A DNA stretch of 47,732 nt from Akkermansia muciniphila (GCA_945906945.1 CAMDSZ010000001.1:1-47732); one strand, 5' to 3'. Counted from the stretch's first letter, positions 14,201-28,870 are shown. The notes: generated from the sequence alone by a model not told the origin. Translations and numbers: made by a program.

Positions 14201-17200
14201 CATGCGGTGTACGTGGTGGATTCTGGAAATCACAGCATTCGGCGGGTTGAGGCGGATGCGCCCACCTCGCAGCGACTGGCCCAGGGAGTGATTGTTGGAA
14301 CCTACAAGGGGACTGGATCCACCTACATCACGTGGGGTTCTTCTCGCCGGCCCGACTGGGTCAGGCCTGGGATGAAAGTTTCCGCATCCGGATTTTTTAA
14401 GGATGAAACGTATGTGAGTCGGGTGGACGATGGCGGTGTCTTTGTGAGCCAACCCGCGCTTATTCAGGGGGTGACATCCGTGCAATTCACGGATACTCTC
14501 GTAAACTCAATTTTCACCACTTACACGTATGCCGGAACTCCGGGAATCTCAGGGGCGCAGGACGGAGCGGGGGTGCAGGCGCGGTTTTGGTTCCCGCAGA
14601 AAGTCGCGATATCTGGGGATGGTTCATTGTTTGTGTCAGATACAAACAATTGCCTAATTCGTAAGATTGCGCCCTCTTTAGATCCGAGGTCTGGGATTGT
14701 GCGGGTTTTTGCCGGGGTTGTGGGCAAGAGCGGATCTGTTGACGGGCCGGCCTCGATGGCCCAGTTCAGTGCGCCAAAGGGTGTTGCGGTTTCCGACGAC
14801 GGGTCGGTTTATATTTCCGATGACGGGTCGCATCTTATTCGGAAAATCTACGATTATTACGGGGATCGGATGGTGGCAACGCTCGGAGGGCTAGCCAAGT
14901 CTCCCGGCCACATGGATAGCGACCTTGTTTCTGAGTACATCTATCAGTGGAAGAAAAACGGAGCTCCCCTCGGTGCTGCGATTCGAGGCGAAGCAGGCCG
15001 TACGCTCACTTTGAGCGGCGACGCTGCTGATTCGGGAGTTTATGTCGTGGAGGTCACATCTGCGGCACTCTCGAGCTTTAAGTTCACCTCTCAACCGGCA
15101 CAGATCACGGTTCCGGCTTCGAGCGCACCGGTGGCATTCGTAAAGTCGATCACGGTTAGGGCGGGGAATACCTATCAACTGGGCGTCAACGACGTATTCA
15201 AGACGTACTTCCCAAAGCTTGACTGCAAACAATTCATATTTGAGCAGGTTGATTCGAGGCGGCAGACATTGCCGGAGTGGATACAGATTCCAGCTCAACT
15301 AGCCGGCCCAGATCAGGCAGTTGTATCCATCACTCCGAAGGCGGACGCAACCACCCAGTCCCTCGTGATCAGTGTTCTTGCTGATTTGGACGATGGAACA
15401 ACCAAGCTGGGTTATCTCCAATTCAATGTTCAAGGCGTTCGAGTGGATCAAGACTATAGGCCAATCATTGTCCAGCAGCCCACGTCATGGAACTCTACTG
15501 ATAGCGCCCTAATGAGTGACAGACTGGCGGTGAAGGTGATGTCTGGGGATGAATTCTCCACCAGTTATCAGTGGTACCAGAGACAGAAGCCGAGCGCCTC
15601 TTATCTCAGTTACTCAGGCGGTTCGCAGGTCAGTGTGAATTCGCTGTTGAGATCTAGGCAGGCTGCGACAACTGGGAGTCTTGCCCTCTCAATTCCGGTG
15701 TCTGGGGGAACGGGAAGTTCGTTATCATTGCCTCCACCCCTGACGGCGGGAATTTACGCGCTTAAGGTTACAAATAAAAAAGTGCTCTCAAGTTCGACGA
15801 ATACCGTCTTCACGCAGCAAGTCGTGTATAACACGTCAGGGAATTCAGCGGCAGCGACCGGTTCTTTTTCGACGGTCACGAATCAATCACTTGCTTCTGA
15901 CGGTTCTTCGGTCGAAACGGATCTCGTTCAGGTGGTGGTTTCCGGCCCGCCTCAGGTGGTGCAGCAGCCGTTCTCTTACCTTCAGTCGGAGGGCGACCGT
16001 GTGATTCTCAGGGTTTATCCGAAGACTTCCGCGAAATCCTTGATGAACGAACCGCGTGGAATTGCTTACAACAGCAGTGACCAATCCTTGTTATCGGTGG
16101 AGCGCGGCAATTACGCGGTTCGTTCCGTTTCTCTGGGCGGGGAAGTCGCCGACTTCGCCGGTTCGCGTTCGGATTGGGGCGGCGACGACTCCCGACTCTC
16201 GAGGGAAGCCCGATTTGGCAGAACTGACGGAGGCCCCGAGGGGTTGACCGTTGATACTTCGGGGACGGTGTATGTTGCTGATACCATGAATCATGTGGTT
16301 CGCATGATTTATGGGGGCACCGTTAGCACAATTGCGGGTGTCACAGGGTTCGCGGGTTCAACCAACGGTTCTGGCCAATCTGCACGATTCAACATGCCTT
16401 CCGGAATCGCCAGCAGGAACACAGTTGATACGAGCGGTTCGGAAGTTGTGATTCTTTATGTCGCGGACTCAGGCAACCATCTGGTTCGGAAGATTATGGT
16501 TTTGAACAAGGGCAAGACAAATCAGACTATTTCGGTTACGACGCTAGCTGGCGGAGCAGGAATTTCAGGCTATGTGAATGGCGACGGTTCCAGCGCAAGA
16601 TTCTCCGAACCGTTTGATGTGGCTTATTCAAACAACAAAGTGTTCGTGGCAGATTTTCAAAACCACGCAGTACGCTGTATTACCGATCACAACGACGGGA
16701 ATCCCGCAAATGTGACGGTTATCACGCTCGCAGGGGGTGCTCTGGTGGGAGGAACCGAGGTTTTTGGATTGGACATTCCGAATAACCCTGATTCCCCGCT
16801 TTCGGGATTGGACGCAGGATTGAAGGCGAAGTTTTTACATCCCACGGGCGTAGCCTCGGACGGTCAATTTGTCTACGTGGCAGACTGGGGTAATCATGTT
16901 GTCAAACGGGTATCTTTCCCGAGTCCGGGAGCCCAGCAGCAGTCGCTCAGAGTCGAAGTGATCGCAGGTGAGTCAGGTGTTCCAGGTGAATCAGGCGACG
17001 GTCCAGTCAAAGCAAAGGATGCTCGCTTCAAGGAGCCGACAAAAGTCGCCGTGGATCCTTTAGGGAATGTTTATGTTTCTGACTCTTGGAATCACGTGAT
17101 CAGAAAGATTGGCTTAGACCAAGTGATGACCACGGTTGCGGGTGTCGAGGGGCTTCCTGGTGATTTGAACAGCGACTTGCCAGTGGAATTTTATTATCAG

Positions 17201-20200
17201 TGGTATAAGGGCAATCGGCCAATCACGGGCGGAAGCGGAAATGCATCCTCCTATGAAATTAAGTCTCTCAGCTCCGCTTCGGAAGGAGACTACACAGTGT
17301 TGATTTCGAACGATGCCAGAATGAGTGCGTCCTTGATGAGTGCTTCTGCCTCGGTAAAAATGGCTACGCCCACGAGCATGAAGCTGGTGGACGTCATTGC
17401 GGGTCAAACCAGTATCATTGGGAAGAGTGTGATTCGATCAGGTTCTTTGGCCGTGGATCAGCTGCCGACATGGGCCCGGGTGGATAGTCTGGGGAATTTG
17501 GTTCTGTCGCCAAGCGTAATGGAGCCTGTCGGTCTTGTCTCTGGCACCTACGGCGGGGATCCACTGTTTGTAAATGTGGTGTCAAAGAAGCAGGGTATGC
17601 TCTCGCCAAGAATTCTCACCGAACCGATTGATATTCTGACCGGCGTCGGCCAGGACCTGAATTTGCGAGCAAAAGTCCAGCTACCGGGGGCTGCGGCAAC
17701 TGCTGTGGCAACACTTTCAGCTCAAAATGTCAAATGGTACAGGCTTGGTGCGGCTGGGGCGCTCGTGTCTTGCGGCACGCTAGGGGACGCCACTGGGGCT
17801 CGCTCTTCGTTACTGCCCGATGTTCTCCCTGAAACGTACGAGGTGAATTTAAGTTGCCCGCGCGTGCAGGCCGGTCAGGCCGGATTTTATCGCCTTGAAG
17901 TTACGCCGATCCAAGGCGGCGCTCCATTGATCTCGAATTGGATTCAAATCGTGCTTCAGGCTTCTCCATCTTTCGTTGAGCAGCCTGAACCCGAAAAGTT
18001 TTTTGTCGTGGGAGGGTCACTTTCAATATCGGCCGAAGTGCGGACGCCGGCGAAATCGCTGTTCCAGCGTCCGGTGGGTCTGGCGTCTTTGCCAAACACG
18101 TCGCGACTGATCATCGCGGACGAAGAAGATCGAACTGTCCGGATATCCTCCTCGGGAGGCCGAGTCTCTAACTGGTTAGGTGCATCGGGGATCAGCGGTT
18201 TTGCGTCAGGTTCGGGTGAAAATACACGCTTGGGCTCTGTTGAGGCAATAGCTTATGACCCCGGCATCGTGCTGAACTTGAGAAGTGCAAGGCTTACGGC
18301 AGGGTCCGCCTGGATTAAGGTAAAGGAGATCGAAGGCATACACCTAGGAATGACAGTCTCCGGGACTCTGGCGATCCCTGCCGGCGCGCAAATTGAGGAA
18401 ATCGGAGCGGCGGAAGGCTTTTTCCGAAACATCAAGTTGAGCACGACCGCGACTCAGACCCACGCCGAAGTCGATCTGGTTGCCACTAGGGCGAGCGCGA
18501 CTTATTTGGCGGACTCCGTCAACCACGTCATTTGTAAGGTGTCTATGGCCGGCGAAATGAGGGTACTCTGCGGTAGTTTGGGGGTTGCGGGCGACGGAGG
18601 GCTTTACTGTTCTTTGGATAACGCAAAGTTTAATGCACCTCAAGGAGTGGCGGTCGATCCATTGGATGGAACGGTTTATGTTTCCGATACGGGTAACCAC
18701 GCCATCCGGATGATTCAACAAGGGGTGCCAAGGGTGTATTTGGTCGCCGGGGGAACCTTTGGGGATACGCTGGCGTTGCCCTCTTACAGCTTCAAAGATG
18801 TGTCTCGCGAGGAGCTTGGAAACGGGTTTTCCACGTTCAGTCCGTTGGACGTGAAGTTTTATCAGCCCCTAGGGATTGCGGCACGCACTCGTCTTTTGAC
18901 TTCTTTGGATTTCCCGTTGGGTCGATATGTAACTGAGGTTTTTGTGGCTGACCGGATGAACCATGTGGTTCGGGTAATTCGATTAAACGCGCGGAAGCCC
19001 GACAACAGCTTTGCCGTGTTAAATTGGAGCGGTCTGTCTACCGATAAATCCGCTTATTTCAAAGAAGGCCTGTATGACAAAGTTCTCGGTGTGCTTACCT
19101 GGGCGGGTCAGCCCGGAATTAGCGGCGCGAAGGATGGAGCCGGTGATAGCGCTAAGTTTAATTTGCCTTACGGGTTGGCTCTCGACTTCGGCAACGAAGT
19201 GGATGGAAGTCTCTATGTTGCGGATCAAGGCAACCACGCGCTGCGGCGCATCGCTACAGAATTTGATGCACAAACCCTGGTTTTTAAGGATCAGGGGACT
19301 GTAGAAACCGTTGCGGGCATCTTAGGCGTGCCTGGCGCTGCAGATGGTTCTGTGGTCACTGATCCCGTTACGCAGGTTCAAACTGCGATTCCTTCGCGGT
19401 TGTCGTGGCCCACTGGTGTCGCTGTGAACTCGAGAACTGGAGAGGTTTTTGTGTCTGACACAGGGAATTTCTCCATCAGGGTTTTGAGGGACGGTGTTTT
19501 GCAAGCTTTTGTTGGTGAGCTGGGAGCAAAGGGATCCTTTAATAGCGCCGAAGTTTTGGATGGGTTCACTTACCAATGGTACAAAGATGGAAGCCCGATC
19601 GCAGTAAAGGGCTCCGGATTGCAAGGTGTCAATTCGGACACGCTCAGCAATTCGCCGATGGCTTTCAGTGATATAGGCGCATACCAACTGGAAGTCCGCG
19701 GGGCGACTACTCTGCGGAGCGCGGTCAGTTTGCTGCGCGCCGAGACTCCCATGCGATTCATTGAGAGTCCCTTGTCGTACGTTCAAAACAATACGTTGAC
19801 CAACAAGGGCGGTGTTTGGAACAATGATCGAGGGTTCGAGGTGGATCCTTACGGGACCGTCCGTCTTACAGCTACAGTATACGGGGCGGGAAACCTTGGC
19901 TATCAATGGAGCAAAAATGGCATGCCGTTGTCAGACGGAGCAAACCTTTCTGGTGCCGTACTCGGCGGGGTATTGTCTCCGAGTGTCACTTTGGGAAGAG
20001 GCGGATGGAAGAAAATTGACAGTGCAGTGGCTGGCCCGCGGCACTCTGCAGCAATCAGTGCGGGGACGCTTTACATGTGGGGAGCGAACGACGCTGGGCA
20101 ACTGGGGCTTGGGGATCGAGTGCCTAGATCGCTGCCGCAGGCTCTGCCTGCAAGTGCATTTGGTGGAAATCAGGTGAAGGAAGTCGCTCTTGGGCAGAGT

Positions 20201-23200
20201 CATACGCTTGTGCGAACAGCGGATGGGGCAATTTATGCGTGGGGTAGTAACGCTCAGGGCCAGCTCGGCAAGCCGTCCGGCGACAATATTCTTCAACCGT
20301 CCAATGTGGACATCGGGACCAAAAAGATCAGGGCGATTGCTGCCGGTTCCAACCATTGTTTGGCGGTCATTGACAAGTCCAGCGCAGGCGCAAACACGGT
20401 CCTAAGCTGGGGCGGGGGGCCTGATACGCCGGCTCAACTTGGCCGCAAAATCGCCGCCGGCAAATTTGTTGTTGCCTCGGGAGCCTATTCGGGCGAACTC
20501 ACCGGTGAAATTTGGTCAGATGCCGCCCTCGCCCAAGCGGTTTTTAGCATGACTGTAAATACAGACTCTGGGGTTTTCTCTGTGCCGCCGCGCATCTTAT
20601 CCGCTGCTCCAGCATCAGGCGCTTCGGCTACCAATCTGGTTCTAGATCAAAAAGCGCAACGTTCTGGGGTTTTTGCCGTCACTATCTCACACCCAGCATG
20701 GAAGCCTTCGCCGGTGATTTGCACTGTCAACGGCCAACTGCGATTGCTGAAGGCCTTTGATTTTTCAACCGAATCCGCTTTGCTTACGAAGTTGAAGAGC
20801 GACGGAAAAAAGCTGGGACTCGAAGCGGTCTCCTGCGTGTCAACCGGATTGGCGCATTCCTTGGTTCTAGGGGACGACTTGAACGTCTACGGGTTTGGCT
20901 CCAATGCGAAAGGCCAAGCGGGGCAGGTGGACACAGTTCAAATGCAAGAGGTCGCGTTGGCGATGCCGATTGAGACAGCAAATATCCGCGGTGAATTATT
21001 TAGATCGGTCGCAGCAGGGGATGTGCATTCCATAGCTTTGACTTCCAAAGGGGTGCTTGTGTCGTGGGGTGATAACAGTTCCAAGCAACTTGGACGATCG
21101 GTGATCAAGTCGGTTGAATCGAGCTTGGTAAGCACCAACACGTTGGTGGTTTCAGGAACGAGTATGCTGAAAGTGAATTCAATGGCGGCGTACTTTGAAC
21201 AGAATGTGGGAGGTGGAAAATGGGATGCTCGTTCAGGATGGTCCGGCAAATATGACTTGGGATTGAACATTTGGCCGCAGGTTTTCTCTCCAGCCTCAGC
21301 GAGAATCTCTGTGATAAATGCTAGTCGGGTTGTCAGGCTCGATGGGTTCTTCTCCCTGCCAGTCCCCACTATGCAGGGCCAACCGATTGAGGTGGTTTTT
21401 GCGGACATAACCAATTTCTCGGGGATGCCGAGAAAAGCCTTCTATGTAGAATCCGACCCAAAACAGTTAAGTTCCATTGCCTCGGGAGGCAGTTCAAACA
21501 TTGCGATCGGAGCGGATAGTAATGTCTATGTCTGGGGACGCAATGGGGGCCAGTTGGGGATTGAATGGCGAGATATCTCGGAATTGGCAGCCCCGCAGCC
21601 ATTGGAATTCTTCTCCTCGGTGCTGTGTAAAAACTCGCGGGCTGTGCGAGTATCCGTGGGCGGGCATGGCCATGACACCGGCCATGCCTTTGCGGTGGAT
21701 TCTCAGGGTATGCTTTTTGTGTGGGGCGACAACACAGCCGGACAACTCGGTGATGGATTGTTGGCGGAGCGGAGAGTGCCGAACTACAATGCGTTTTCAG
21801 ACTTTGGCAATTACACGCTGAAAGTGCGTTCAAGCGTGGATGGTCAACAAGACGAATCCGAGGGAGTGTTTCTCGTGCAGCCCGAGGTGGAGGCTTCGCG
21901 ATTCGGTGAGTGGCCAAGAGCACTTTTAAGCCCCGAGCTTCAGGTGAGCTACAAGGGGTCTGTAGCGATTAACATCCCTGGGCCAATGGGCTACCCTAAA
22001 CCCGATGTACAATGGGTCGATGGAGGGACGCGAAGCTTCGGAAATTCCTACGTGGTAAACAACGTCGAAAGTCTAAGGCAGGTATCGGTGACACTTGGGC
22101 AGCGTGACGGCTCCGGAAACTTTATTCCGCTGCCTAATCCGGATCTCTTGAGCCGATGGTCTTTTAATAACCCAGCTGAACCAGCAAGACTCACGGGAAG
22201 TTTTGATTACGCTTTTGAGTATCAACTCGGGAGTCAAACTGGGTTGACTTCCGGGTCTACGTACCAAACCACTCATGCAGCGGCGACGAGCGCCGCGCTG
22301 GCACTCCGCCCAAGTGACTCTAGTACGAGCAACTTGATCGTCGTGCCGTCTGTAAACCCGAATTATGAGCCGCTGGAGAGTTTCAGGGATGCTATGCTTA
22401 AGCAGAGGAGCTTACGCGACCAAGACTCCGGCAATTTCAGCGTGCGGACAGATGCTGGGCCTGCGGGCACTGCATCCTTCGTTGATTTGAGCGAATTGGA
22501 CCCGAGTGATGCGACGAAGGTGATTGCTGGGTCCGGAACAATCAAATTCAGTTCTGGTGCTCTGGCCGTTGGCGCGCTGAAAAGCGGCTCTCTAACGACA
22601 TTGACACCTGATGCCACGCGGGCTGCCAGCTACGTCTCCCTCCCCATGAGCTTGACTGGCGAGGAGATTGCAAGAGACGGTCTGACCGTAGAGGTTTGGG
22701 CAGCGCTCAATAACGCGACGGCATTCCCAACGATCTTTAGTTTGGACACTCCCAATAAAGCGGGCGCGGAACTTTGGGCGGGCTATTATTATGCCAAAAC
22801 TGACACGAGTCGCCCAGCTCTGTCCTCCTCGCTGGCTGATGCGGCAACGGCGACCGCCACGACTGCGATGCCGCTGGTACTTGGCAAAATCTATCATTGG
22901 GCTTTAGTTGTCAGTCCTGCAGCTGCCAAGGCGACGCTGTATCGAGACGGGGTGGAGGTGTGTTCCGTCCCAGTGAGTTTGGCAGATGTGGGAGCTCTTC
23001 AATTTGGAGAGCTGTGCTTGGGCAAATCTTTGACAAATGACGATCCACATTCCTCTGCTACGTATCTTGAGGCGCGCGTGTGGCGCCGGACCTTGAGCGC
23101 GGCTGAAATCAAACAGAACAGCGATTTGAAAGAAGATGCTGACTTCAGTTACAGCCGAAATTTCAAGGTCGTTCCAAGTGGATTCCGTCTACTGGTACCG

Positions 23201-25609
23201 GATTGGGAGCGCGCTGGAGTTCGCAGGCGCGACTCTGTAGTAACGGTTGCGCAAGGTGACAGCATCAAACTCTTCGCGGCGTTTGATGGTCAGCCTTGGC
23301 CCGGCATGAGCTACCGATGGAAAAAAGATGGAATGTTTTTGAACGGAGAAAATCAAAGCTCGCTTGATTTCTCCAACCCGATGGAAGAGTTGAATCTTAA
23401 TAGAGGAATAGTTCCTCGTCAGGCTGGAAACTACCAAGTGGTCGTCTCTGATGGGTTCGTCATAAAAGAGAGTCCTGTTGTCAAGGTTGTGGTCACCAGT
23501 ACATCGGCGGTCACGCTCACCGGGAACCTCACACAGGATTCAGACTACGTAAAAGTAAGCAACGTCTCGAATCTGAAGGTCGGGATGGGCATAGGTGCGA
23601 GCGGCATCCAGAAGGGGACCCTCATTGTTGAAATTATTCCTGCCACTTCAACCATTAGACTCTCAAGCTTGGCCTTCACCACTGCTTCGAATGTAACGAT
23701 AACTGCCTCGCAGGATGCTCTCTACCAGGTCATCGTAGACTCCAGAGACATCGATGGAAACGATGGCGTGCGAGGTGTTGAAATAATCCCACAACTAGGC
23801 GCTGAAAATTCTTACCTGCCCGCGGGCACTAGCGTGAGGATTGCGGGGACACCTGTTTCGGGCATTCTTCGTGGCTGGAAAATCACCGATCCAAGAAATC
23901 CCGATAACGAGTATGGCCAGGTGCAGGCAACGGGCTCGTGGGTCTCCTTTGTAACACCGGCAAAGGACATAAAAATCACACCAATCATTGGCACGGCTTT
24001 AGCCGGTTTGTATTCAGGGTTCGTCACAAGTTCCTCTTCCGAAGAAGTCACAGAGCAAGATTTGGGTAAAATTCGCGGTTACTTGGAGGCTGCTGTCACT
24101 CCTCAAGGGTCAGGAAGTTGCGCTTTATGGGTCGATGGCAGACGCTATGTGTCGAGGCCAACTTTTGGGTGGGTCGAGGGCGCGAAGATCGATTTATCGG
24201 TCGTCGATAAAACCAGTGGCGTCACAGTCGTCGAGGTATTGGAGGGCGGCATAGCTGAAAAGGCTGGCCTCAAAGCGAGCGATATTATCGAGTCTGTACA
24301 GGTTGAGGGCAGCTCTACTGCAATCGAACTTTACCGGGTCCGTGATTTTGACGCCTTTGTAAACAACTCTCGAATGATAGGCAAAAAAGCCTACCTCAGT
24401 GTCGTGCGCGCGGGAGTAAGGCTCGCAGAGCCTTTAGTTGTACAGCCCGAGAGTGAGTGGTACATGCGATCGATGATCCAGTTGGATACCAAAGGGCTGG
24501 GGACTTGGGTTGGTGAGATGAGTATCAAAGCTGACGAAAAACGTGGAACCCGTGCTTTTTTAAATTTGAGAAACGTGTCGCTGAAAAATCCCGCATTTAA
24601 CTCGGCGGAAATTTCGGGAGGAAACGACATTTTCTGCAACGCCTACACCCCTGTCGGTATTGGAAAAACCAACTATGGGTTGCACTCTGCAGGTCTGTAT
24701 AAGGGAACAGGTAAAGTTGAAAACCTCGGGCAAGGTGGCGTCTTTTTGATCCAGACGAACGCGACAGCCGGCACCGCCTTGATTTACGGGCGACTCGGAA
24801 ATGGAAAACAGTTTAGTTTCAGGGGCATTGTAGGTAGACTATTTTCGCCATCAACAAACCTTGGGTCTGACTTCCTGAGCGCCTCAGCATCGGTCGCGAA
24901 TGTATTCTCCGAAACTATCGTTGACGAAACCCCAGAGGCTGCAATGCGAGACGCCCTCTATCGCAAAACAGTAAATCCGCTGATGCCTGTCTGGAGCCTG
25001 GGTGACTTGCGAACAGACTTGAATTTCATTGCTGGTGCGGTGGTTTTTGATGGCGAAAAAATCCATGGATCCGTGGGGATGATCAACCGCCCTCTGAACT
25101 CGACGGGATTCAGCACAGAATATACTCCCAATAAGCTTGTGGGTCACGCCGTGCTTCCAGCCACGACTGGCACATTGGGTTCAGCCGTATGGCTACCTTC
25201 CGATGCAGTTACTTTATACTCCAGTTTAACTTATCCCAAGCCGCAAGGATTCGGGTCGCAGTATATGAAGTACTTCGGTACAGCAGGACTCATCTTGCAA
25301 AAAATGACCCCAGAACTGCGTGTGCCAAATGTAGAAAATTTGAGAGTCGAAAGGCCTCTCAGTGGGCTTTTCAAGGGCTCCTTCACAGCGACGGATGTCG
25401 ACTCCCGACTGATTGGAGCTCAGAATCGAATGAGCAGGGGATTAATTAACACATTCTATGGTGTCGCCATTGGTGGAGAGACAAACGCGGGGGTTGGGTT
25501 CCTCCTTCGAGGCCCTGTCGTACAGACCTATACTCAACTTCTTGGCAATCAGCAGAAGTTTGATGAGGTATCTCCACGTACCGAATCAATCCGGCTTGAT
25601 GCTCCTTAG
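2..25609 (+). CDS. Giant multidomain repeat protein, >=8,535 aa (ORF touches 5' window edge, so may be 5'-partial); probable surface/extracellular binding protein
   Basis: Single stop-free frame-2 ORF (ATG at 2..4, TAG at 25607..25609). The other five frames contain only short ORFs (<=241 aa) across this span. The translation resolves into repeated recognisable domain families (NHL, RCC1, Ig-like, LamG, PDZ). No upstream sequence is available to confirm the start codon. Confidence 0.9.
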   Translation: MTNQSTILAVGTTYGISAGMRLIGTGLPDPVEVSAVSSDGRSITLTGSINVGTLFGESVSTIGAPSLSAFVVPNSGSVTAQTGSLEALPDYNPSGDDSENYAIKPIRQVLRIRADPDNSLISGSIVSVGTIGFRNYPITMAKTLMAGTFTVEVRESSPAVRASGISNDQKWWGVRGVRPGMRVINKNLPPGCYVYSVDDDSRVVNGTLSYGRFTVAIPVVNRDVPNTVVSGWSGATSGTVNITAGGGNGWSEGMDLSGPGVPADTKIQAIFYPGTISTILLSKSATVVAGATLTASGQGFTGDVTKVFSEARYLYYALTGIAPSAGKISLVGSGTVQLSTPIPLDGPLAFLPDSPTDLYSVGILNGGYFTYNDFNYLKLAIPANSNGTVDDYGFNFILSGANTASFNGGTIATTAVSFSKKNGGNNFYQGGGNNAFGTVGNTAVLTAIPALPLRTCSFVNGSKIVRTWSTKSLLPGMFVHHRNLPDRAYVKRIIDDQTFEISSYTGGATGGIQNDDVVINNTVVPSRVLGVRSWGLVTTPVAASGTVNLKLNDVSGLSYGTRLLGANLSSGTAGVAVITGVDKFNSSVTISSGNTFVAGVSLVAVPEFVGPNNINTWNLYNSPITRADGQPVILNGTASSLNPATTFQADLGFLAVPGNPGRLPSGARLFPDGMVVVGTTGVFQNFGAGVVPVRQQVVLSGTLTDTGAFPAWSGAVSFVPGVDLAAAATVEGGSMVTVGTLPTERIAVGMRVFGPGIPELARVRSVLSGGTGFTIGTGTLDLTYAGSSTSTGSLTGGSVSLGTLTTATTGTVMSVGTAVVIVPNGTLVAGSPNVICGTVAGLAPGMILTGSSTSGSVSRITYAGRGYSQIASISNGTLFTLTENANQSSAGPMNLVAAYQSFPKEYGMFITGAGVIGNGQVSIGNLSAVSGNASSWRSGLQRGMVIHAPGLSPLGAHILQVNPTDIIVSTWTAGTYSLGSFATLSSVGPTGTLLTSSPSLTGTGTITMATATGIVPGMAVTGTGLPTGRSVSSVSGTVVTLSGTVSGVVSGATITFSSFYSLNPSALNAPIYFSATPSLAGGTGFTNNISVGTASGVNGYWLSGGTALASSNQITVTSAPSYLKPGMTLYHPFLNSGSLVESQRGWARVADVSGGVVTIVGSLGSAVSSGTFGIAGYLPMMLSPGSLSVDGTQLTFSGSSNLSAGMLVHGGTVNGGGAYGSISGGGSFTGFIPVVPPGTFVRNVSTDGRTVTLNGTLNTIAAGSLDAGSLIFSTLPGQIIPAVSTRPHSKRLFVQSGSIAQSGYPLTARLAWWRDSNITLVTAEALANNNTEIILNITNQPNNIPFPSISEGAPIVITPPFVTMNARGKAGSNVVSLEGGTNALVNIRAQGEDLKVGMPIFGYGVQRGTFIEFINEYTNPVTVELSQALGLDIPVTVYDADGSGAVDALDEPLSYETLVVNTSIVSSILNKSTASQTEIQVFDNSGYFPGMPLVNSLGNLTALGLNVIAKIPTGARVVSKRDSTFLTLNTPLVGTTNYTTVPYAAYTNATTAEAANGAVVYATAPYIRLRGRSATRTAAQGGGSSVTTIPGSSIVDFDSSFIQMDPSWAGMAVYGAGIPPGANVESVIASNQFTLSQPAAPTSLVPQQAAAPIILDPTRVVVSQFYGDKSSLAQLTLNAGDSVLSALQKNMILDSPTPSFGGAQIGNGLPNLTYLTGGASLSSRTVGISGTLTSVFSGINVRAFYAPIPIGVSAQTSENSFTVSGNLTALYEGMALLGGSIATTSSSNVRLRTIDQGNSEITFAPFLRVGTMEATPSSHPELSGMLSSPIITPGRLWFVNPTTVLFKSVGFTEGGTIAVSGSVPSFDDVNSVIREPITTNLYGGTKIKSLLTPVTNFELSMPARATSGGVRLLVNLAGDRANPAASVSAGSRNRSFIQIPRASTTAGSSVVQFAAAIKALYLDSTANGYSIVGQPIYGTGIPADAFVQSVAMDGLSLTLSKAAEADSSEQIIVVNPNYVIPLEGAFAAANSLEAQVESIGAGSALTPGLSISGLNLSSDTTLISFTNTAEGTKLNLSGRTLGYPSSQLPGLGNFVATVPFVTLKDAVVTANSNTITVGDYQEPPGSVNTYPQTSGLRVGMTVMGSGLPYGTQITGVISGTLTLSQSATRTGTYTLIVNPEVLSAPGLQLTAGGSLVSLSGSGLGADTPPAEIIAGSLSSDLAEPFGPYGLANQWQKLASWGRALGAPAIPHGTVFLSPYFINFGSLGGIQASDRASVLAGGYFDLTSANGNGGDTLGAASFTMNQRATASTSLADFYLTYGRSRLILTGTILSGSSALSVSTVDGLQLGLQVDGAGIPSGTRIVEIDSINNRLVLSALATATTNGAFSFSKTGALVSSDSGVFLNNTVVSSLDSSAIQPGQTVSLASGSLLIIRNIVDPVSGGSVAVPSYNNTPFMTSLLGNAGPRVRSVSSNGSLVFETNTTPGLVLTAGTSISSSTVSTTFTVASNLMFNINGNVFGPYTMVAGSTIATRAAASYLALSQPAQKSSKSVRVLLDGKPYGPVEVIKGSQALLWRGADFVRAGMPVKGPGILQGTTILQVSPPLSNGSLTLTLSAPATSELAANSKFDLEVGGGVNSGIVELNDWQYKTNTENLSVEPGWLLYRSNDPWAANWYPGFGRGAGGSKFELVDYLLLGKITWVAGNGVFGFEPIPDPRNRVAFDSQSQYLMDRLSFEATTDVALSSGRQGFIDQSLSDFYMLGQTPDFFVEAGNARSIRWYKDGELLNQAAGSSRVQVRVSNYTEGFSPSVARTATSDFWQRSQLSLSALTLSSPGFYYANGVSSNAGSYSLSDLIQVSIPDPQPLIVKQPVSKVVQRAGTQVTLEVDLKCNSKALLDTPRGLAVAPDGDFYVVESGNNSLRKATLGGFVNTMIGSKKAILDPNADGVSRDSIWGMASGIAVRVGSLMISDKLLILPSGTAGLTAGMKVLSSSINDRILLSNSAGITISGFAGANTVILSGAPAGDSPSHSIIFIRPEAELPASTNEVVYRRAISSYSSFGVTLPSGVQNIVPGMLVCGYGVPDFTTVTAVEAKSNSVTLSGWIRHEGLEANNLLVFVRPLNQPEAIASDEVGALYIADTGNNRILRFYPKTVQDKSRGFDPAVPAGTVEVLTPASGPQLSAPRGITVVGYGPEAVVYVANSSQNTVLKIARSGASWVSTTLAGKPGVSGYADGVATSATFNGLRDVAYYNESVYVADYLNHTIRRISLGQTPEVTTVAGAPGQAGLIDGSGSAAKLYFPAGLAVNKVDGSLTVSDLGNHAIRKLNANGSLVTIAGKIFNGIPAFGKEDGLGTSAGFWYPKGIAIDKTGVIRIADTSNHLIRSITPDAAVSTVAGVAKFPFFRDSDKDWAKPVAYVPTEFMVQWYKDGAKITDGITPNGSVFAGTKTRILTIDQVTEQDSGAYAALFESVTRVPVETNVTQVVVGGNLAPDYVGEFTVTPGTLGAMKMNFRDILPPTPSEAFVLNQIRWDETFESEKPFWLDLVSSTLPSELDGKKVTLSAAGVNHSMVLTEDGKLYAWGANSYGQLGVGDRSARFTPVPVYMGGVLSGKTITKIALGEHHSFVLDKDGALYSWGRNDFGQLGIGSVSDAKVYPEKALLTGWTAIASGYQHALAVNFRGELYTWGLDHHSQLGRLNRPATRTVTFSNVSLAALSQTVGLGNSTGLIAGSTLTFAAGLLDGGTVQAVVSSVIGEGQLRIGTASASAISGTTFTASVYCDPVPTQITVSNVTPFVQNSVEQTGNVIAGGRAHSLVATTGGVLAWGENNLFQAGALSFADVATPQLISATNGLQISQVSAGREHSMALSDGGTLLAWGRNDSRQLGADLHPRVVSGSASVAAGGTLTGSGTSSVIQLASVDGITRGMSFTGANLTGTTPKVREVLSGQGVMLSGGSVTLAEGGTMLSFQRITAGTVHGTEYRMTAYPISTEASNVVRVSSTAALGASSRSNRVDPAWAGTVSRTLTMVSTGSWAPGMAVYGTGVPSGTRIVSVDDSSNQVTLSGSVTVSPSTVLDARGSSLGNELLAGPMKVTGFSATGQSFSSTLRLERIVEGPAVVLSGNASFVSGGSAALSARYGNLALSGTVAFTGSLVAGTTQVVVAGTSGLEIGMELSASGSLAAGTTIQEIVTGKLKLSSAPLISGASVPMIATRVASSSPVAVNLSELRLPEAVSSVTRRVTDISSGAQFNFIKTSDGLFWAWGLNSDGQLGDGTFNDKSIPTAFLSPAEETFAWIAPGGNHALATTTGGGLFSWGGNQSGQRGDGTTNTVADPQRHKGITEYFLQAQSIPDSEGQQQVRARVILNDSQKVETLVVVKPSAANYVSPNAPVITKQPASVMVAAGATATLTVEARSELPLQYQWMLNGVDVALGGNSPNYALTDSPRTPIAGLYSVKVSDERGSIVSKTVQVAVVNSPSVFAEPEAQVILPKTSTSIQVLMQSQFKTLFNSPHGLVVRGNGDLLVADRDNSVVRVMNDGGFVETLVGIPQQSGWVDSVGNLSRLSRPEGLTVLNIGEFELVFITDPGSHTVRCLTWEFDKSVGDFVYRLRTVAGLPMQAGFVDGDMKEAKFNSPMGVAGFVSQRKDTSTQLPLPDQYEVYLYVADLNNHALRLVLLPVTVSEDALAADPRSKRTLQIAPSMVASVAGATPITPGPGSNDSAASGQPAQFLLPSDVAVQAGSSHAVYVVDSGNHSIRRVEADAPTSQRLAQGVIVGTYKGTGSTYITWGSSRRPDWVRPGMKVSASGFFKDETYVSRVDDGGVFVSQPALIQGVTSVQFTDTLVNSIFTTYTYAGTPGISGAQDGAGVQARFWFPQKVAISGDGSLFVSDTNNCLIRKIAPSLDPRSGIVRVFAGVVGKSGSVDGPASMAQFSAPKGVAVSDDGSVYISDDGSHLIRKIYDYYGDRMVATLGGLAKSPGHMDSDLVSEYIYQWKKNGAPLGAAIRGEAGRTLTLSGDAADSGVYVVEVTSAALSSFKFTSQPAQITVPASSAPVAFVKSITVRAGNTYQLGVNDVFKTYFPKLDCKQFIFEQVDSRRQTLPEWIQIPAQLAGPDQAVVSITPKADATTQSLVISVLADLDDGTTKLGYLQFNVQGVRVDQDYRPIIVQQPTSWNSTDSALMSDRLAVKVMSGDEFSTSYQWYQRQKPSASYLSYSGGSQVSVNSLLRSRQAATTGSLALSIPVSGGTGSSLSLPPPLTAGIYALKVTNKKVLSSSTNTVFTQQVVYNTSGNSAAATGSFSTVTNQSLASDGSSVETDLVQVVVSGPPQVVQQPFSYLQSEGDRVILRVYPKTSAKSLMNEPRGIAYNSSDQSLLSVERGNYAVRSVSLGGEVADFAGSRSDWGGDDSRLSREARFGRTDGGPEGLTVDTSGTVYVADTMNHVVRMIYGGTVSTIAGVTGFAGSTNGSGQSARFNMPSGIASRNTVDTSGSEVVILYVADSGNHLVRKIMVLNKGKTNQTISVTTLAGGAGISGYVNGDGSSARFSEPFDVAYSNNKVFVADFQNHAVRCITDHNDGNPANVTVITLAGGALVGGTEVFGLDIPNNPDSPLSGLDAGLKAKFLHPTGVASDGQFVYVADWGNHVVKRVSFPSPGAQQQSLRVEVIAGESGVPGESGDGPVKAKDARFKEPTKVAVDPLGNVYVSDSWNHVIRKIGLDQVMTTVAGVEGLPGDLNSDLPVEFYYQWYKGNRPITGGSGNASSYEIKSLSSASEGDYTVLISNDARMSASLMSASASVKMATPTSMKLVDVIAGQTSIIGKSVIRSGSLAVDQLPTWARVDSLGNLVLSPSVMEPVGLVSGTYGGDPLFVNVVSKKQGMLSPRILTEPIDILTGVGQDLNLRAKVQLPGAAATAVATLSAQNVKWYRLGAAGALVSCGTLGDATGARSSLLPDVLPETYEVNLSCPRVQAGQAGFYRLEVTPIQGGAPLISNWIQIVLQASPSFVEQPEPEKFFVVGGSLSISAEVRTPAKSLFQRPVGLASLPNTSRLIIADEEDRTVRISSSGGRVSNWLGASGISGFASGSGENTRLGSVEAIAYDPGIVLNLRSARLTAGSAWIKVKEIEGIHLGMTVSGTLAIPAGAQIEEIGAAEGFFRNIKLSTTATQTHAEVDLVATRASATYLADSVNHVICKVSMAGEMRVLCGSLGVAGDGGLYCSLDNAKFNAPQGVAVDPLDGTVYVSDTGNHAIRMIQQGVPRVYLVAGGTFGDTLALPSYSFKDVSREELGNGFSTFSPLDVKFYQPLGIAARTRLLTSLDFPLGRYVTEVFVADRMNHVVRVIRLNARKPDNSFAVLNWSGLSTDKSAYFKEGLYDKVLGVLTWAGQPGISGAKDGAGDSAKFNLPYGLALDFGNEVDGSLYVADQGNHALRRIATEFDAQTLVFKDQGTVETVAGILGVPGAADGSVVTDPVTQVQTAIPSRLSWPTGVAVNSRTGEVFVSDTGNFSIRVLRDGVLQAFVGELGAKGSFNSAEVLDGFTYQWYKDGSPIAVKGSGLQGVNSDTLSNSPMAFSDIGAYQLEVRGATTLRSAVSLLRAETPMRFIESPLSYVQNNTLTNKGGVWNNDRGFEVDPYGTVRLTATVYGAGNLGYQWSKNGMPLSDGANLSGAVLGGVLSPSVTLGRGGWKKIDSAVAGPRHSAAISAGTLYMWGANDAGQLGLGDRVPRSLPQALPASAFGGNQVKEVALGQSHTLVRTADGAIYAWGSNAQGQLGKPSGDNILQPSNVDIGTKKIRAIAAGSNHCLAVIDKSSAGANTVLSWGGGPDTPAQLGRKIAAGKFVVASGAYSGELTGEIWSDAALAQAVFSMTVNTDSGVFSVPPRILSAAPASGASATNLVLDQKAQRSGVFAVTISHPAWKPSPVICTVNGQLRLLKAFDFSTESALLTKLKSDGKKLGLEAVSCVSTGLAHSLVLGDDLNVYGFGSNAKGQAGQVDTVQMQEVALAMPIETANIRGELFRSVAAGDVHSIALTSKGVLVSWGDNSSKQLGRSVIKSVESSLVSTNTLVVSGTSMLKVNSMAAYFEQNVGGGKWDARSGWSGKYDLGLNIWPQVFSPASARISVINASRVVRLDGFFSLPVPTMQGQPIEVVFADITNFSGMPRKAFYVESDPKQLSSIASGGSSNIAIGADSNVYVWGRNGGQLGIEWRDISELAAPQPLEFFSSVLCKNSRAVRVSVGGHGHDTGHAFAVDSQGMLFVWGDNTAGQLGDGLLAERRVPNYNAFSDFGNYTLKVRSSVDGQQDESEGVFLVQPEVEASRFGEWPRALLSPELQVSYKGSVAINIPGPMGYPKPDVQWVDGGTRSFGNSYVVNNVESLRQVSVTLGQRDGSGNFIPLPNPDLLSRWSFNNPAEPARLTGSFDYAFEYQLGSQTGLTSGSTYQTTHAAATSAALALRPSDSSTSNLIVVPSVNPNYEPLESFRDAMLKQRSLRDQDSGNFSVRTDAGPAGTASFVDLSELDPSDATKVIAGSGTIKFSSGALAVGALKSGSLTTLTPDATRAASYVSLPMSLTGEEIARDGLTVEVWAALNNATAFPTIFSLDTPNKAGAELWAGYYYAKTDTSRPALSSSLADAATATATTAMPLVLGKIYHWALVVSPAAAKATLYRDGVEVCSVPVSLADVGALQFGELCLGKSLTNDDPHSSATYLEARVWRRTLSAAEIKQNSDLKEDADFSYSRNFKVVPSGFRLLVPDWERAGVRRRDSVVTVAQGDSIKLFAAFDGQPWPGMSYRWKKDGMFLNGENQSSLDFSNPMEELNLNRGIVPRQAGNYQVVVSDGFVIKESPVVKVVVTSTSAVTLTGNLTQDSDYVKVSNVSNLKVGMGIGASGIQKGTLIVEIIPATSTIRLSSLAFTTASNVTITASQDALYQVIVDSRDIDGNDGVRGVEIIPQLGAENSYLPAGTSVRIAGTPVSGILRGWKITDPRNPDNEYGQVQATGSWVSFVTPAKDIKITPIIGTALAGLYSGFVTSSSSEEVTEQDLGKIRGYLEAAVTPQGSGSCALWVDGRRYVSRPTFGWVEGAKIDLSVVDKTSGVTVVEVLEGGIAEKAGLKASDIIESVQVEGSSTAIELYRVRDFDAFVNNSRMIGKKAYLSVVRAGVRLAEPLVVQPESEWYMRSMIQLDTKGLGTWVGEMSIKADEKRGTRAFLNLRNVSLKNPAFNSAEISGGNDIFCNAYTPVGIGKTNYGLHSAGLYKGTGKVENLGQGGVFLIQTNATAGTALIYGRLGNGKQFSFRGIVGRLFSPSTNLGSDFLSASASVANVFSETIVDETPEAAMRDALYRKTVNPLMPVWSLGDLRTDLNFIAGAVVFDGEKIHGSVGMINRPLNSTGFSTEYTPNKLVGHAVLPATTGTLGSAVWLPSDAVTLYSSLTYPKPQGFGSQYMKYFGTAGLILQKMTPELRVPNVENLRVERPLSGLFKGSFTATDVDSRLIGAQNRMSRGLINTFYGVAIGGETNAGVGFLLRGPVVQTYTQLLGNQQKFDEVSPRTESIRLDAP
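8291..8578 (+). other. Ig-like beta-sandwich domain (intact)
   Basis: FFVEAGNARSIRWYKDGELL ... GSYSLSDLIQVSI. The [YW]-x-W-[YK]-K-[DN]-G strand-C signature is shared with all other Ig-like units in this ORF. Confidence 0.5.
8579..10450 (+). other. Composite unit 1: Ig-like domain split by a six-bladed NHL beta-propeller (~624 aa)
   Basis: N-terminal Ig half PLIVKQPVSKVVQRAGTQVTLEVDLKCNSKALLDT. NHL blades run 8690..~10180: PRGLAVAPDGDFYVVESGNNSLRKA, GALYIADTGNNRILRF, PRGITV..VYVANSSQNTVLKI, VYVADYLNHTIRRI, PAGLAV..LTVSDLGNHAIRKL, PKGIAIDKTGVIRIADTSNHLIRSI. C-terminal Ig half FMVQWYKDGAKI...RILTIDQVTEQDSGAYAALFES...VTQVVV. Blade 2 is interrupted at 8881..9385 by an insert with two GM-boxes (ATG of GM at 8951 and 9215). 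Confidence 0.7.
10451..13141 (+). other. RCC1 seven-bladed beta-propeller 1 with two large inter-blade inserts, flanked by cadherin-like/He_PIG-like beta-sandwich halves
   Basis: Blades span 10670..~12966: AAGVNHSMVLTEDGKLYAWGANSYGQLG, LGEHHSFVLDKDGALYSWGRNDFGQLG, SGYQHALAVNFRGELYTWGLDHHSQLG, GGRAHSLVATTGGVLAWGENNLFQAG, AGREHSMALSDGGTLLAWGRNDSRQLG, SGAQFNFIKTSDGLFWAWGLNSDGQLGDG, PGGNHALATTTGGGLFSWGGNQSGQRGDG. Insert after blade 3 at 11071..11400 has one degenerate GM-box. Insert after blade 5 at 11642..12705 has 3-4 GM-boxes (GM ATGs at 11762, 12092, 12494). The flanks (EFTVTPG...KPFWLDLVSSTLPSELDGKKVTLS before, YFLQAQSIPDSEGQQQVRARVILNDSQKVETLVVV after) may be one split beta-sandwich; this is tentative. 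Confidence 0.7.
13142..13399 (+). other. Ig-like domain (intact reference copy)
   Basis: APVITKQPASVMVAAGATATLTVEARSELPLQYQWMLNGVDVALGGNSPNYALTDSPRTPIAGLYSVKVSDERGSIVSKTVQVAVV. All strands are contiguous, so this copy serves as the template for the split copies. Confidence 0.65.
13400..15121 (+). other. Composite unit 2: Ig-like domain split by a six-bladed NHL beta-propeller (~574 aa)
   Basis: Ig N-half SVFAEPEAQVILPKTSTSIQVLMQSQFKTLFNS. NHL blades run ~13505..14890: PHGLVVRGNGDLLVADRDNSVVRV, PEGLTV..VFITDPGSHTVRCL, LYVADLNNHALRLV, AVYVVDSGNHSIRRV, PQKVAISGDGSLFVSDTNNCLIRKI, PKGVAVSDDGSVYISDDGSHLIRKI. Ig C-half YIYQWKKNGAPLG...RTLTLSGDAADSGVYVVEVTS...AQITVPAS. A one-GM-box insert (VRPGMKVSASG, ATG 14372) lies between blades 4 and 5 at ~14250..14530. 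Confidence 0.7.
15122..15455 (+). other. Cadherin-like / He_PIG-like beta-sandwich domain
   Basis: VAFVKSITVRAGNTYQLGVNDVF...QTLPEWIQIPAQLAGPDQAVVSITPKADATTQSLVISVLADLDDGTTKLGYLQFNV. The 'LP.W..' + 'I.P...' pattern is typical of dystroglycan-type cadherin-like/putative Ig domains. Assignment is by eye only. Confidence 0.4.
15456..15946 (+). other. Ig-like domain with expanded S/T-rich loops
   Basis: PIIVQQPTSW...RLAVKVMSGDEFSTSYQWYQRQ...LTAGIYALKVTNKK...DLVQVVVSG. Confidence 0.5.
15947..17371 (+). other. Composite unit 3: Ig-like domain split by an uninterrupted six-bladed NHL beta-propeller (~475 aa)
   Basis: Ig N-half PPQVVQQPFSYLQSEGDRVILRVYPKTSAKSLMNE. NHL blades run 16052..~17150: PRGIAYNSSDQSLLSVERGNYAVRSV, PEGLTVDTSGTVYVADTMNHVVRMI, ILYVADSGNHLVRKI, VFVADFQNHAVRCI, PTGVASDGQFVYVADWGNHVVKRV, PTKVAVDPLGNVYVSDSWNHVIRKI. 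Ig C-half FYYQWYKGNRPITGG...YEIKSLSSASEGDYTVLISND...SASVKMATP. No GM-box insert is present. Confidence 0.75.
17372..17600 (+). other. Cadherin-like / He_PIG-like beta-sandwich domain (second copy)
   Basis: MKLVDVIAGQTSIIGKSVIRSGSLAVDQLPTWARVDSLGNLVLSPSVMEPVGLVSGTYGGDPLFVNVV. Confidence 0.4.
17601..17962 (+). other. Ig-like domain
   Basis: PRILTEPIDILTGVGQDLNLRAKVQ...VKWYRLGAAG...AGFYRLEVTPIQGGAPLISNWIQIVLQA. Confidence 0.5.
17963..19750 (+). other. Composite unit 4: Ig-like domain split by a six-bladed NHL beta-propeller (~596 aa)
   Basis: Ig N-half SPSFVEQPEPEKFFVVGGSLSISAEVRTPAKSLFQR. NHL blades run ~18064..19495: PVGLASLPNTSRLIIADEEDRTVRIS, SATYLADSVNHVICKV, PQGVAVDPLDGTVYVSDTGNHAIRMI, VFVADRMNHVVRVI, PYGLAL..LYVADQGNHALRRI, PTGVAVNSRTGEVFVSDTGNFSIRVL. 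Ig C-half FTYQWYKDGSPIAV...DIGAYQLEVRG...VSLLRAETP. Blade 2 is interrupted at ~18263..18492 by one GM-box (IHLGMTVSGTLAIPAGAQIEEI, ATG 18350). Confidence 0.7.
19751..21883 (+). other. Composite unit 5: Ig-like domain split in its E-F loop by RCC1 seven-bladed beta-propeller 2
   Basis: Ig strands A-E: MRFIESPLSYV...TVRLTATVYGAGNLGYQWSKNGMPLSDGANLSGAVLGGVLSPSVTLG. RCC1 blades run ~20041..21760: AGPRHSAAISAGTLYMWGANDAGQLG, LGQSHTLVRTADGAIYAWGSNAQGQLG, AGSNHCLAV..VLSWGGGPDTPAQLG, TGLAHSLVLGDDLNVYGFGSNAKGQAG, AGDVHSIALTSKGVLVSWGDNSSKQLG, SGGSSNIAIGADSNVYVWGRNGGQLG, GHAFAVDSQGMLFVWGDNTAGQLGDG. Ig strands F-G: NAFSDFGNYTLKVRSSVDGQQDESEGVFLVQP. Non-GM inserts follow blade 3 (20444..20845) and blade 5 (21094..21480). 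Confidence 0.65.
21884..22141 (+). other. Ig-like domain
   Basis: LSPELQVSYKGSVAINIPGPMGYPKPDVQWVDGGTRSFGNSYVVNNVESLRQVSVTLGQRD. Confidence 0.4.
22142..23125 (+). other. LamG / concanavalin-A-like lectin domain (Laminin_G_3-like), with an N-terminal extension
   Basis: Opening DLLSRWSFNN. Core: LTGEEIARDGLTVEVWAALNNATAFPTIFSLDT...LGKIYHWALVVSPAAAKATLYRDGVEVCS...LCLGKS...YLEARVWRRTLSAAEIKQN. The 'RVW.R.LSA.EI' ending is the usual LamG_3 signature. Confidence 0.65.
23160..23495 (+). other. Ig-like domain
   Basis: VTVAQGDSIKLFAAFDGQPWPGMSYRWKKDGMFLNGENQSSLDF...RQAGNYQVVVSDGFVIKESPVVKVVV. Confidence 0.55.
23496..23700 (+). repeat. Isolated GM-box copy near the C-terminus
   Basis: LTGNLTQDSDYVKVSNVSNLKVGMGIGASGIQKGTLIVEIIPATSTIRLSSLAF (GM ATG at 23585). 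Confidence 0.55.
23720..23992 (+). other. Possible InlB-B-repeat-like (bacterial repeat) beta domain
   Basis: YQVIVDS...GVEIIPQLGAENSYLPAGTSVRIAGTPVSGILRGWKITDP...SWVSFVTPAKDIKITPIIG. The pattern Y.v.v...G.v.p....y..Gt.V.i.A.P..G..F.GW resembles divergent InlB B-repeat domains. Assignment is by eye only. Confidence 0.3.
24215..24448 (+). other. PDZ domain embedded in the C-terminal region
   Basis: SGVTVVEVLEGGIAEKAGLKASDIIESVQVEGSSTAIELYRVRDFDAFVNNSRMIGKKAYLSVVRAGVRLAEPLVVQP. It has the classic V..V..GS.A..AGL..GD.I..ING pattern (here GGIAEKAGLKASDII) followed by 'l.V.R.G...'. Confidence 0.6.
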
Positions 25610-28800: not shown

Positions 28801-28870
28801 TGCCGCGCAGCGGCTGGCCCGGGTCGCGCACGTGCTTTTCGCCAGCGTGGACTTCAGATACATTCGCTAG
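25814..28870 (+). CDS. PSCyt1-DUF1549(PSCyt2)-DUF1553(PSD1) family protein, 1,018 aa, with an extra beta-sandwich insert and a low-complexity linker
   Basis: Hydrophobic N-terminus (LYGLAVAPLFHAAFAVA). CxxCH 'CLECH' lies at 25967..25981 within FEKKVRPLLEEHCLECHSAAKKIKGGLRLDS (Planctomycete cytochrome-c-like). A second motif, CARCHDHKFDPI, lies at 26912..26947. C-terminal DUF1553-type text: NPLTARVLVNRTWAWVFG, HPELLDYL, ...ASVDFRYIR. Confidence 0.9.
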   Translation: MHFRTSKPRILRNLYGLAVAPLFHAAFAVAHPSAGEVNYFEKKVRPLLEEHCLECHSAAKKIKGGLRLDSQSGWKIGGDSGPALVPHDPEASLLIKAVRYRDPDFQMPPRKKLAARELEILEQWVRTGAHDPRREDLALQNPTRTQSRALALEDAASHWAYRAVVPQAEPVVRNGAWAEGPIDRFLLRAMESASITPVRDADAAVVLRRLHLLLTGLPPEPEAIDAFELEYKRDRRQAVLKTADALIASTAFAEAFARRWLDLTRFAESSGGGRTLLFKDAWRYRDYVLNSIHADVPLNRFITEHIAGDLLPASSVQERARLLTATGFLALGPTNYEEQDKQQLRFDIIDEQLDTIGKAFLGQTIGCARCHDHKFDPIPQRDYYALAGIFSSTRTLNNLTDNVARWVVEPLPGYPEEERLEHEHKQKVAQLRAKIEAARNQVARLNSSPLQGESIVKGPIAIDRFHGIILDDADAKLVGAWKTSSFFKNYVGVGYLTDENTGKGEKTATFTPLFAHSGRYEVRFAYSAGPNRSKEVRVTVFHADGEEVVTVNETEEPAVDGHFTSLGTFRFEKDGAGFVLVSNAGGAGHVVVDAVQFIQDTLPAARTVTQAAAGTAGTASAPSAAGSDANSTGPQTTSASVSSNNGADQLPASKKVDSAKDARATLASLSEELKQLEKKAPPRSVAMVVSENVEVGDTALRVRGIAKQKAEIVPRGFLRAVMVDDAKQIQFDATQSGRTQFAQWLTSDNNPLTARVLVNRTWAWVFGAGLVGTTENFGTTGEKPTHPELLDYLTARFIQQGWSLKQLVREMVTSHAWRLAEEAPLGADPTNKLLSRHSVRRMDADQIRDTMLHAAGRLSREFGGANINGAKDINANESSAANIEYNYIFTDVRRSLYTPAFRNRRHEVFDVFDFGDINNSVGVREASTVAPQALFFLNSAFAGEQAKAVGERLAVSHPDPIAAVDRVSLVMLGRHPSQTEAKVLSALYNSCPSEEDAAQRLARVAHVLFASVDFRYIR

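Follow-up and report, generated by a model that had tools for sequence, protein, structure and literature searches.

The closest described counterparts of the module discussed here are the Ig (immunoglobulin)-like “split domains” carried by the RTX (repeats-in-toxin) fibrillar adhesins AhLap, FrhA, and MpIBP (Ye et al. 2025, PMC12077191; Sherik et al. 2024, PMC10865825; also Graham et al. 2024, Proteins 92:933, as cited in PMC12077191). In these adhesins, split domains keep the ligand-binding domains off the filament axis, and nesting can go further, as in a vWFA (von Willebrand factor A) domain placed within a β-roll together with a further insert (PMC12077191). A recent proposal is to use split Ig-like domains as a practical marker when ligand-binding modules are sought in giant adhesins, so far for RTX adhesins of Proteobacteria only (PMC12077191). 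Here we describe an element of a giant protein encoded in the window, the whole 47,732-nucleotide (nt) stretch that was analyzed (CAMDSZ010000001.1:1-47732 of GCA_945906945.1, recorded as Akkermansia muciniphila). In this element, which covers nt 19751-21883 and amino acids (aa) 6584-7294, a β-propeller of RCC1 repeats lies between two stretches of Ig-like sequence. We establish its sequence architecture, its conservation, and the fold of its propeller, and we consider it probable, at about 80%, that the element is a single discontinuous Ig domain of the I-set/Ig_3 type that hosts a complete seven-bladed RCC1 propeller where the loop between strands E and F begins.

What the element would have in common with the RTX split domains is an Ig-like sandwich, placed along the axis of a giant protein of a bacterium, into which a complete guest is inserted. 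In the RTX adhesins the guest has adjacent termini and buds off the filament axis, and by analogy the propeller studied here would do the same. The differences concern host, loop, guest, and organism. The host here is an I-set/Ig_3-type Ig, whereas the RTX host is a BIg extender; the insertion follows strand E, whereas in the one crystallized AhLap example it follows the first strand (PMC12077191); and the guests are whole β-propellers of ~600 aa, in contrast to the 17-30-kDa RTX guests (a carbohydrate-binding module, a β-roll, or vWFA). The protein of the window, which comes from a freshwater bacterium of the Verrucomicrobia, in the PVC (Planctomycetes-Verrucomicrobia-Chlamydiae) group, has neither RTX nonapeptide repeats nor recognizable type I secretion features: in place of the C-terminal GGxGxD β-roll and type I signal that define RTX proteins, its 8,535 aa hold a single GGxGxD, inside an RCC1 blade, and Pfam found no HemolysinCabind family in the giant protein. 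A split Ig host is already known; what is new is the type of Ig, the loop that receives the insert, the propeller as a guest, and the phylum.

Nested architectures of a related kind are familiar from integrins, in which the β-I (vWA) domain of the β subunit lies inside an Ig-like hybrid domain that itself lies inside a PSI domain, and the I domain of the α subunit is inserted between propeller blades. Integrins thus share with the present module multilevel nesting, an Ig-like sandwich as a host, and a propeller with an inserted domain. They differ in being eukaryotic and unrelated in sequence, and their sandwich hosts a Rossmann-like domain, not a propeller; in the giant protein, the propeller would be at once a guest in an Ig domain and a host of further segments.

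The RCC1 propeller and its Ig flanks

The element is part of a giant open reading frame (ORF) on the plus strand (nt 2-25609) that encodes 8,535 aa without interruption; all parts of the element lie on that strand. Its first part, the N half of the split Ig (nt 19751-19996, aa 6584-6665), comprises strands A, A′, B, C, C′, D, and E, includes the invariant strand-C Trp (in YQWSKNG), and reads TVRLTATVYGAGNLGYQWSKNGMPLSDGANLSG...SPSVTLG, with G6665 (nt 19996) as its final residue; a preliminary description made from the sequence alone had strands A-E end at ~20000, which this boundary confirms. A Gly-rich linker, RGG (nt 19997-20005), leads from strand E to the first propeller strand, as read from the sequence. 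The 594 aa that separate the Ig halves (nt 20006-21787, aa 6669-7262) consist of RCC1 blades 1-3 (nt 20006-20449, aa 6669-6816), a first extra segment (nt 20450-20815, aa 6817-6938), blades 4 and 5 (nt 20816-21106, aa 6939-7035), a second extra segment (nt 21107-21457, aa 7036-7152), and blades 6 and 7 (nt 21458-21787, aa 7153-7262). The C half of the split Ig (nt 21788-21892, aa 7263-7297) then supplies the rest of the E-F loop (FSDFGNY, a D-x-G-x-Y-type motif of that loop), strand F (YTLKVRS), and strand G (GVFLVQP); within it, NAFSDFGNYTLKVRSS...EGVFLVQP spans aa 7263-7294 (nt 21788-21883).

Two orthologs serve for comparison. The closest genomic relative, L001, lies on a Chthoniobacteraceae contig from Lake Mendota, a metagenome-assembled genome (MAG), is ~75% identical at the protein level, and is without the N half of the split Ig. 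The more distant P0142, a fragment of 4,395 aa that comes from a JGI metagenome, is annotated as “RCC1 family protein” and nothing more; its linker is QGG.

The guest scores 144.9 bits with Pfam RCC1 (cut-off 21.7), 117.3 bits with RCC1_2, in 7 stretches, and 215.9 bits with WD40_RLD (cut-off 150). In an AlphaFold2 model of the native 711-aa chain, its blades have pLDDT (predicted local distance difference test) values of 85-98 and a regular four-strand pattern, and Foldseek places the model on the seven-bladed UVR8 propeller (E = 2e-27; target-normalized template-modeling score, 0.83-0.87). The alignment supplied to AlphaFold2 consisted of RCC1 homologs trimmed to the seven blades and covered neither the Ig halves nor the extra segments; an alignment of full-length multi-RCC1 homologs (A1) was discarded because it forced RCC1 blades onto the Ig halves. 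Blades 1-3 are matched by all three Pfam families, have pLDDT 88-98 with the strand pattern A-B-C-D, and are 69% identical to those of P0142; blades 4 and 5 (74%) and blades 6 and 7 (71%) are each identified by Pfam and by the model. With seven repeats above the curated score and a closed seven-bladed fold, the features that mark RCC1-like propellers (PF00415, PF25390), the guest is, as modeled, a complete, closed seven-bladed RCC1 propeller.

The preliminary description had proposed an RCC1 propeller of about 590 aa. Its length and its seven blades stand, but ~240 of the 594 aa are not RCC1 repeats and form the two extra segments that follow blades 3 and 5. Neither segment has a Pfam match; pLDDT is below 50 in the first and 24-35 in the second. 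Both are conserved (46-73% identity in orthologs), the first being 46% identical in P0142 and 67% in L001 and the second 50% in P0142, and they may bring the nesting to three levels. Motifs conserved within them include HP.W[KR]PSPV, RLLKAFDFS, FEQ.VGGG.W.A.SGWSG, and PRKAFYV.SD. The only part of the first segment to which RCC1 homologs align is VPPRILS, probably the outer strand of blade 3. A hint from a profile of paralogous Ig domains that the first segment contains an Ig E-F pattern was rejected (hhalign probability, 2%).

The repeat pattern has the propeller open with an inner strand, WKKIDSAVAG, and close with an outer strand, RRVPNY. Its two ends should therefore be related like an ordinary blade-to-blade connection, an arrangement that suits insertion into a loop and would bring the termini close together. 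The RCC1-like propellers (RLDs) of UVR8, RCC1, HERC, and RPGR share with the guest the seven RCC1 repeats; what sets the guest apart from them is the additional ~240 aa that follow blades 3 and 5, together with its probable position inside another domain. Human RCC1 has an N/C strand exchange (“Velcro”), whereas the repeat pattern suggests a guest ring closed without one. Bacterial RCC1-repeat proteins are functionally diverse.

One Ig domain or two separate pieces

Profile comparisons place the two flanks on different parts of one Ig domain. Pfam aligns the N half alone to Ig_2 (positions 12-55 of 79) and finds zero matches for the C half alone; when the propeller is removed, the spliced sequence aligns to I-set (positions 16-84 of 90) across the junction. 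A paralog profile, built from six other Ig domains of the giant protein, matches residues 36-77 of the 711-aa chain at model positions 19-59 (N half) and residues 681-695 at positions 67-81 (C half). Against an external Ig profile, hhalign aligns the N half to columns 13-62 (score 47.5, probability 95.6%), the C half to columns 60-76 (P = 0.006, probability 6%), and the spliced ortholog pair to columns 13-75, again across the junction (score 56.3, E = 4e-10, probability 96.7%). The complementary matches of the split profile indicate that nt 19751-20000 encode an incomplete domain. The preliminary description anticipated this outcome: it had the sequence resume after the propeller with a strand F-G signature, as aa 7263-7294 and their complementary columns now confirm, and it looked to a split-profile comparison, in which the N half proved partial rather than already a complete domain, the C half complementary, and the spliced sequence continuous over the junction.

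The alternative that survives best, though we judge it unlikely, is a tandem arrangement in which a truncated (“atrophied”) Ig without strands F and G is followed by the RCC1 propeller and then by a β-hairpin linker that resembles an F strand by chance. That the halves match exactly complementary profile columns speaks against such a chance, as does the motif FSD[FY]G.YTL, kept in three orthologs. The best in-protein match of the C half is a true F strand, that of the upstream Ig, AFSDIGAYQLEVRGA, and within the 8.5-kaa protein each half best matches the corresponding part of the other Ig domains. An uninterrupted relative from another Verrucomicrobia genome (L002) reads LAYQWSKNGMPLPGATAAYLSLTNVQTADAGNYSLTVSN, and the split form reads LGYQWSKNGMPLSDGANLSGAVLGGVLSPSVTLG-[propeller]-NYNAFSDFGNYTLKVRSS. 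The core Ig signature is present as well: alignment A4 shows W54 and G92 without exception and Y94 almost so (at least 90%), with W54 and the strand-B hydrophobics encoded before the propeller and G92 and Y94 (G-x-Y) after it. All three residues are kept in P0142, and G92 and Y94 are kept in L001. A five-strand half sandwich, as the tandem arrangement requires, would expose its hydrophobic core, and four sister modules of the same protein, described below, share the split logic. The C half, 35 aa between the propeller and the next Ig-like domain, is too short for independent folding.

Scores point the same way. With an Ig profile from which the candidate was excluded, the N half joined to its true C half reaches 32.7 bits, compared with 25.3 bits for the N half alone, a level attained by 8 of 2000 control segments of equal length from the same protein and by none of 500 shuffles.

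When modeled, the spliced sequence forms an Ig sandwich with strands A′ to G and pLDDT 72-88 over residues 30-100; its strand F (residues 92-100, pLDDT ~80) is supplied by the C half. All of its top 50 PDB matches are immunoglobulin-superfamily or antibody-type Ig-fold chains: I-set adhesion domains (Sidekick, contactins, DLAR, and PTP-delta), antibody, nanobody, and T-cell receptor variable domains, and other Ig-fold chains. The match to Sidekick-1 (root-mean-square deviation, 2.0 Å over 79 columns) extends beyond what the N half alone could supply. For the spliced sequence, the model agrees with the earlier expectation that structure prediction would unite the two segments in one sandwich; in the native 711-aa chain, the halves stay below pLDDT 56.

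Several observations weigh against a single interrupted domain, and some of them favor the tandem arrangement. For the native chain, AlphaFold2 gives the two Ig halves pLDDT values of 26-56, and packing of the halves is not observed. The spliced model drew on an alignment of intact Ig domains and is thereby biased toward such a fold. The C half by itself is statistically weak, as its hhalign values indicate; with an external-only profile, the gain that it brings is small (20.9 compared with 19.5 bits) and is equaled by 46 of 2000 controls. In a search with an external profile of strands F and G only, the C half is not listed, and the known F-G regions that were found score 1.6 bits or less; this profile gave little because it is too short. 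In phmmer comparisons with PDB sequences, strands B and C alone aligned, whether the query was spliced or unspliced, which is uninformative. The Pfam Ig scores of the candidate all fall under the curated cut-offs, and even the spliced sequence, at 18.0 bits for I-set (PF07679; cut-off 23.7) and 14.6 bits for Ig_3 (PF13927; cut-off 30), remains below the gathering thresholds. Uninterrupted Ig domains of the giant protein are also sub-threshold (19.2 and 21.4 bits for I-set, close to the value of the spliced sequence; 29.5 and 24.4 bits for Ig_3), so the low scores reflect divergence of the whole lineage. PDB chains of titin, Sidekick, and contactin are matched at E = 1e-20 to 1e-39 by an alignment-based profile in which the candidate is included. 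The tandem arrangement can also draw on precedent, since partial domains are known (PMC4432964). On balance, and although the native model does not display it, we strongly infer that in the intact chain both halves belong to a single sandwich.

A second and less probable alternative assigns aa 7263-7297 elsewhere, as an N-terminal extension of the next Ig-like domain (aa ~7298-7390) or as an extra strand pair on the propeller. The segment does lie directly upstream of another β-rich domain, one without a Pfam match and with uncertain boundaries. Yet it ends in LVQPEVE, typical of a strand G followed by an inter-domain linker, the next domain has an A-strand-like start of its own (LLSPELQV), and profiles put the segment on Ig columns 60-76, not on the A strand. 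A metagenome mis-assembly or frame artifact that joined propeller DNA into an Ig-coding region might be suspected in a window that apparently comes from an uncultured organism and whose closest relatives are all MAG or metagenome contigs, but it is very improbable, given the same junctions in the independent assemblies of L001 and P0142 (54-82% identity), an ORF continuous over 25.6 kb, and a base composition that is even across the junctions.

The single interrupted Ig domain also appears to be of some age. P0142 retains both junctions and L001 the C junction; the N half is 54% identical in P0142, and the C half is 63% identical in P0142 and 69% in L001. The junction motifs YQW.KNG.PLSDG, G.GGWK, and RR.P.[YF]NAFSD[FY]G.YTL are kept in the orthologs. 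Neither a base-composition break nor flanking repeats were found at the junctions, which carry no sign of recent insertion; even composition and the lack of flanking repeats indicate that the architecture is old and fixed. A motif scan of 275 retrieved RCC1-rich or Ig-rich proteins plus the window protein found the Ig-RCC1-Ig split pattern in the window protein and P0142 only, and the sole return of a metagenome scan was an unrelated RCC1 locus (L003). Five proteins that had appeared to match across the N junction (P0161, P0178, P0207, P0222, and P0272) were rejected because there RCC1 is aligned with RCC1, and YQWSKNG imitates a blade's WG.N motif.

When homologs were sought, the spliced Ig returned zero proteins and the paralog alignment 5; with so few Ig homologs, the Ig alignment stayed shallow. 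Among the closest relatives of the giant protein's Ig domains are P0122, P0123, and P0125, single-Ig database proteins of ~115 aa that start with MVDVIKRR. PDB entries of phage tail and capsid-decoration proteins (9ncf, 9c2d, 5lxk, and 3shs) are also matched by the Ig profile, which indicates that phage decoration proteins share this Ig subtype.

Sister propellers and a possible role

Four further modules of the giant protein have an NHL-repeat propeller between strands B and C of an Ig domain: nt 8579-10447 (aa 2860-3482), nt 13400-15112 (aa 4467-5037), nt 15944-17362 (aa 5315-5787), and nt 17960-19744 (aa 5987-6581). Once spliced, their A-B and C-G pieces can be aligned over the whole length with Pfam Ig_3 and I-set; one such host, at 33.4 bits, lies above the I-set cut-off. 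With NHL propellers in B-C loops, the preliminary description was correct in stating that the RCC1 propeller uses a second, different Ig loop. A second RCC1 propeller (aa ~3552-4330, in the region nt ~10448-13138, aa 3483-4379) is colinear with the one studied and likewise has extra sequence after blades 3 and 5, the second of its extra segments being ~400 aa long. A homologous Ig host for this second propeller was considered and rejected: its flanks are without similarity to the Ig flanks studied here (z < 0.5) and are not recognizably Ig. Short and β-rich, these flanks (aa 3483-3551 and 4325-4379) resemble another split host domain.

We posit that the chain of the module studied here would build strands A-E, exit through the Gly-rich linker, make the propeller, starting at the inner strand of blade 1 and finishing at the outer strand of blade 7, and return with the FSDFGNY loop and strands F and G to close the sandwich. 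If the split domains of fibrillar adhesins are taken as a guide, the Ig domains could make up the axis of a filament, very long and probably extracellular, from which the propellers (the RCC1 propeller studied here, the second RCC1 propeller, and the four NHL propellers in B-C loops) would bud as binding modules, projecting sideways close to the inter-domain junctions; tension along the filament would run through the Ig sandwich and bypass the propeller. An extracellular location and a binding function of the propellers are suggested by this analogy. Against them stands the finding that neither a signal peptide, nor a transmembrane segment, nor RTX repeats were found in the 8,535 aa. With no nonapeptide repeats, no HemolysinCabind, and no recognizable signal peptide or transmembrane segment, the giant protein should not be filed as an RTX adhesin.

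More tentatively, the host Ig might act as a clasp for its propeller. Without end-to-end strand exchange, closure of the ring would need Ig strands E and F to hold both of its ends, and the Ig sandwich would remain incomplete until ~600 guest residues, themselves carrying two nested segments, had emerged. Host, guest, and nested segments could then make up an obligatorily hierarchical, three-level folding unit and define a non-RTX class of propeller-in-sandwich modules in giant filaments of the PVC group, which one more RCC1 and four NHL propellers would join. We regard this possibility as doubtful.

If the element is a single interrupted Ig domain with a propeller guest, the split-domain design reaches beyond RTX adhesins to a giant protein of Verrucomicrobia, with larger guests and with two different Ig loops in use, B-C for NHL and E-F for RCC1. 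Standard domain annotation misses this design, as the label of P0142 and the Ig halves under the Pfam thresholds illustrate. The module would be a natural system in which to study how a small sandwich folds when 600 residues are inserted into it. Its interest lies in protein architecture, folding, and giant-protein annotation; it constitutes no new biochemical system, and the function that we propose is an inferred one.

The giant protein and its surroundings

Pfam identifies in the giant protein 2 RCC1 propellers, NHL repeats, Ig domains, and Laminin_G_3. The ORF begins at nt 2 of the window and may therefore be truncated at its 5′ end; with no signal peptide at this start, the protein may have its true N terminus upstream of the window. 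Its first 2,859 aa (nt 2-8578) have zero Pfam matches and are built from a ~45-aa repeat, GMxVxGxG(I/L)PxGTxIxSV...TLS, present in at least 21 copies (e.g., at aa 19, 180, 749, 1017, 1610, 2139, 2349, 3071, 4030, and 7861), some of which sit within NHL propellers and within the RCC1 propeller that comes first in the sequence (aa ~3552-4330). The C-terminal part of the protein holds a Laminin_G_3 (concanavalin-like) domain, along with a PDZ-like match that is weak (E = 0.003-0.03), at nt ~22600-23100 and ~24190-24420, and the final ~400 aa, conserved in the orthologs, are without a family match.

The genes downstream of the giant ORF are typical of the PVC group and comprise PSCyt1/PSCyt2/PSD1 genes, DUF1501 partners, and housekeeping genes. 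Two PSCyt1/PSCyt2/PSD1 proteins are encoded at nt 25814-30357 and 44524-47211, the first followed by a DUF1501 protein, a pairing that fits the taxonomic assignment and is characteristic of Planctomycetes and Verrucomicrobia.

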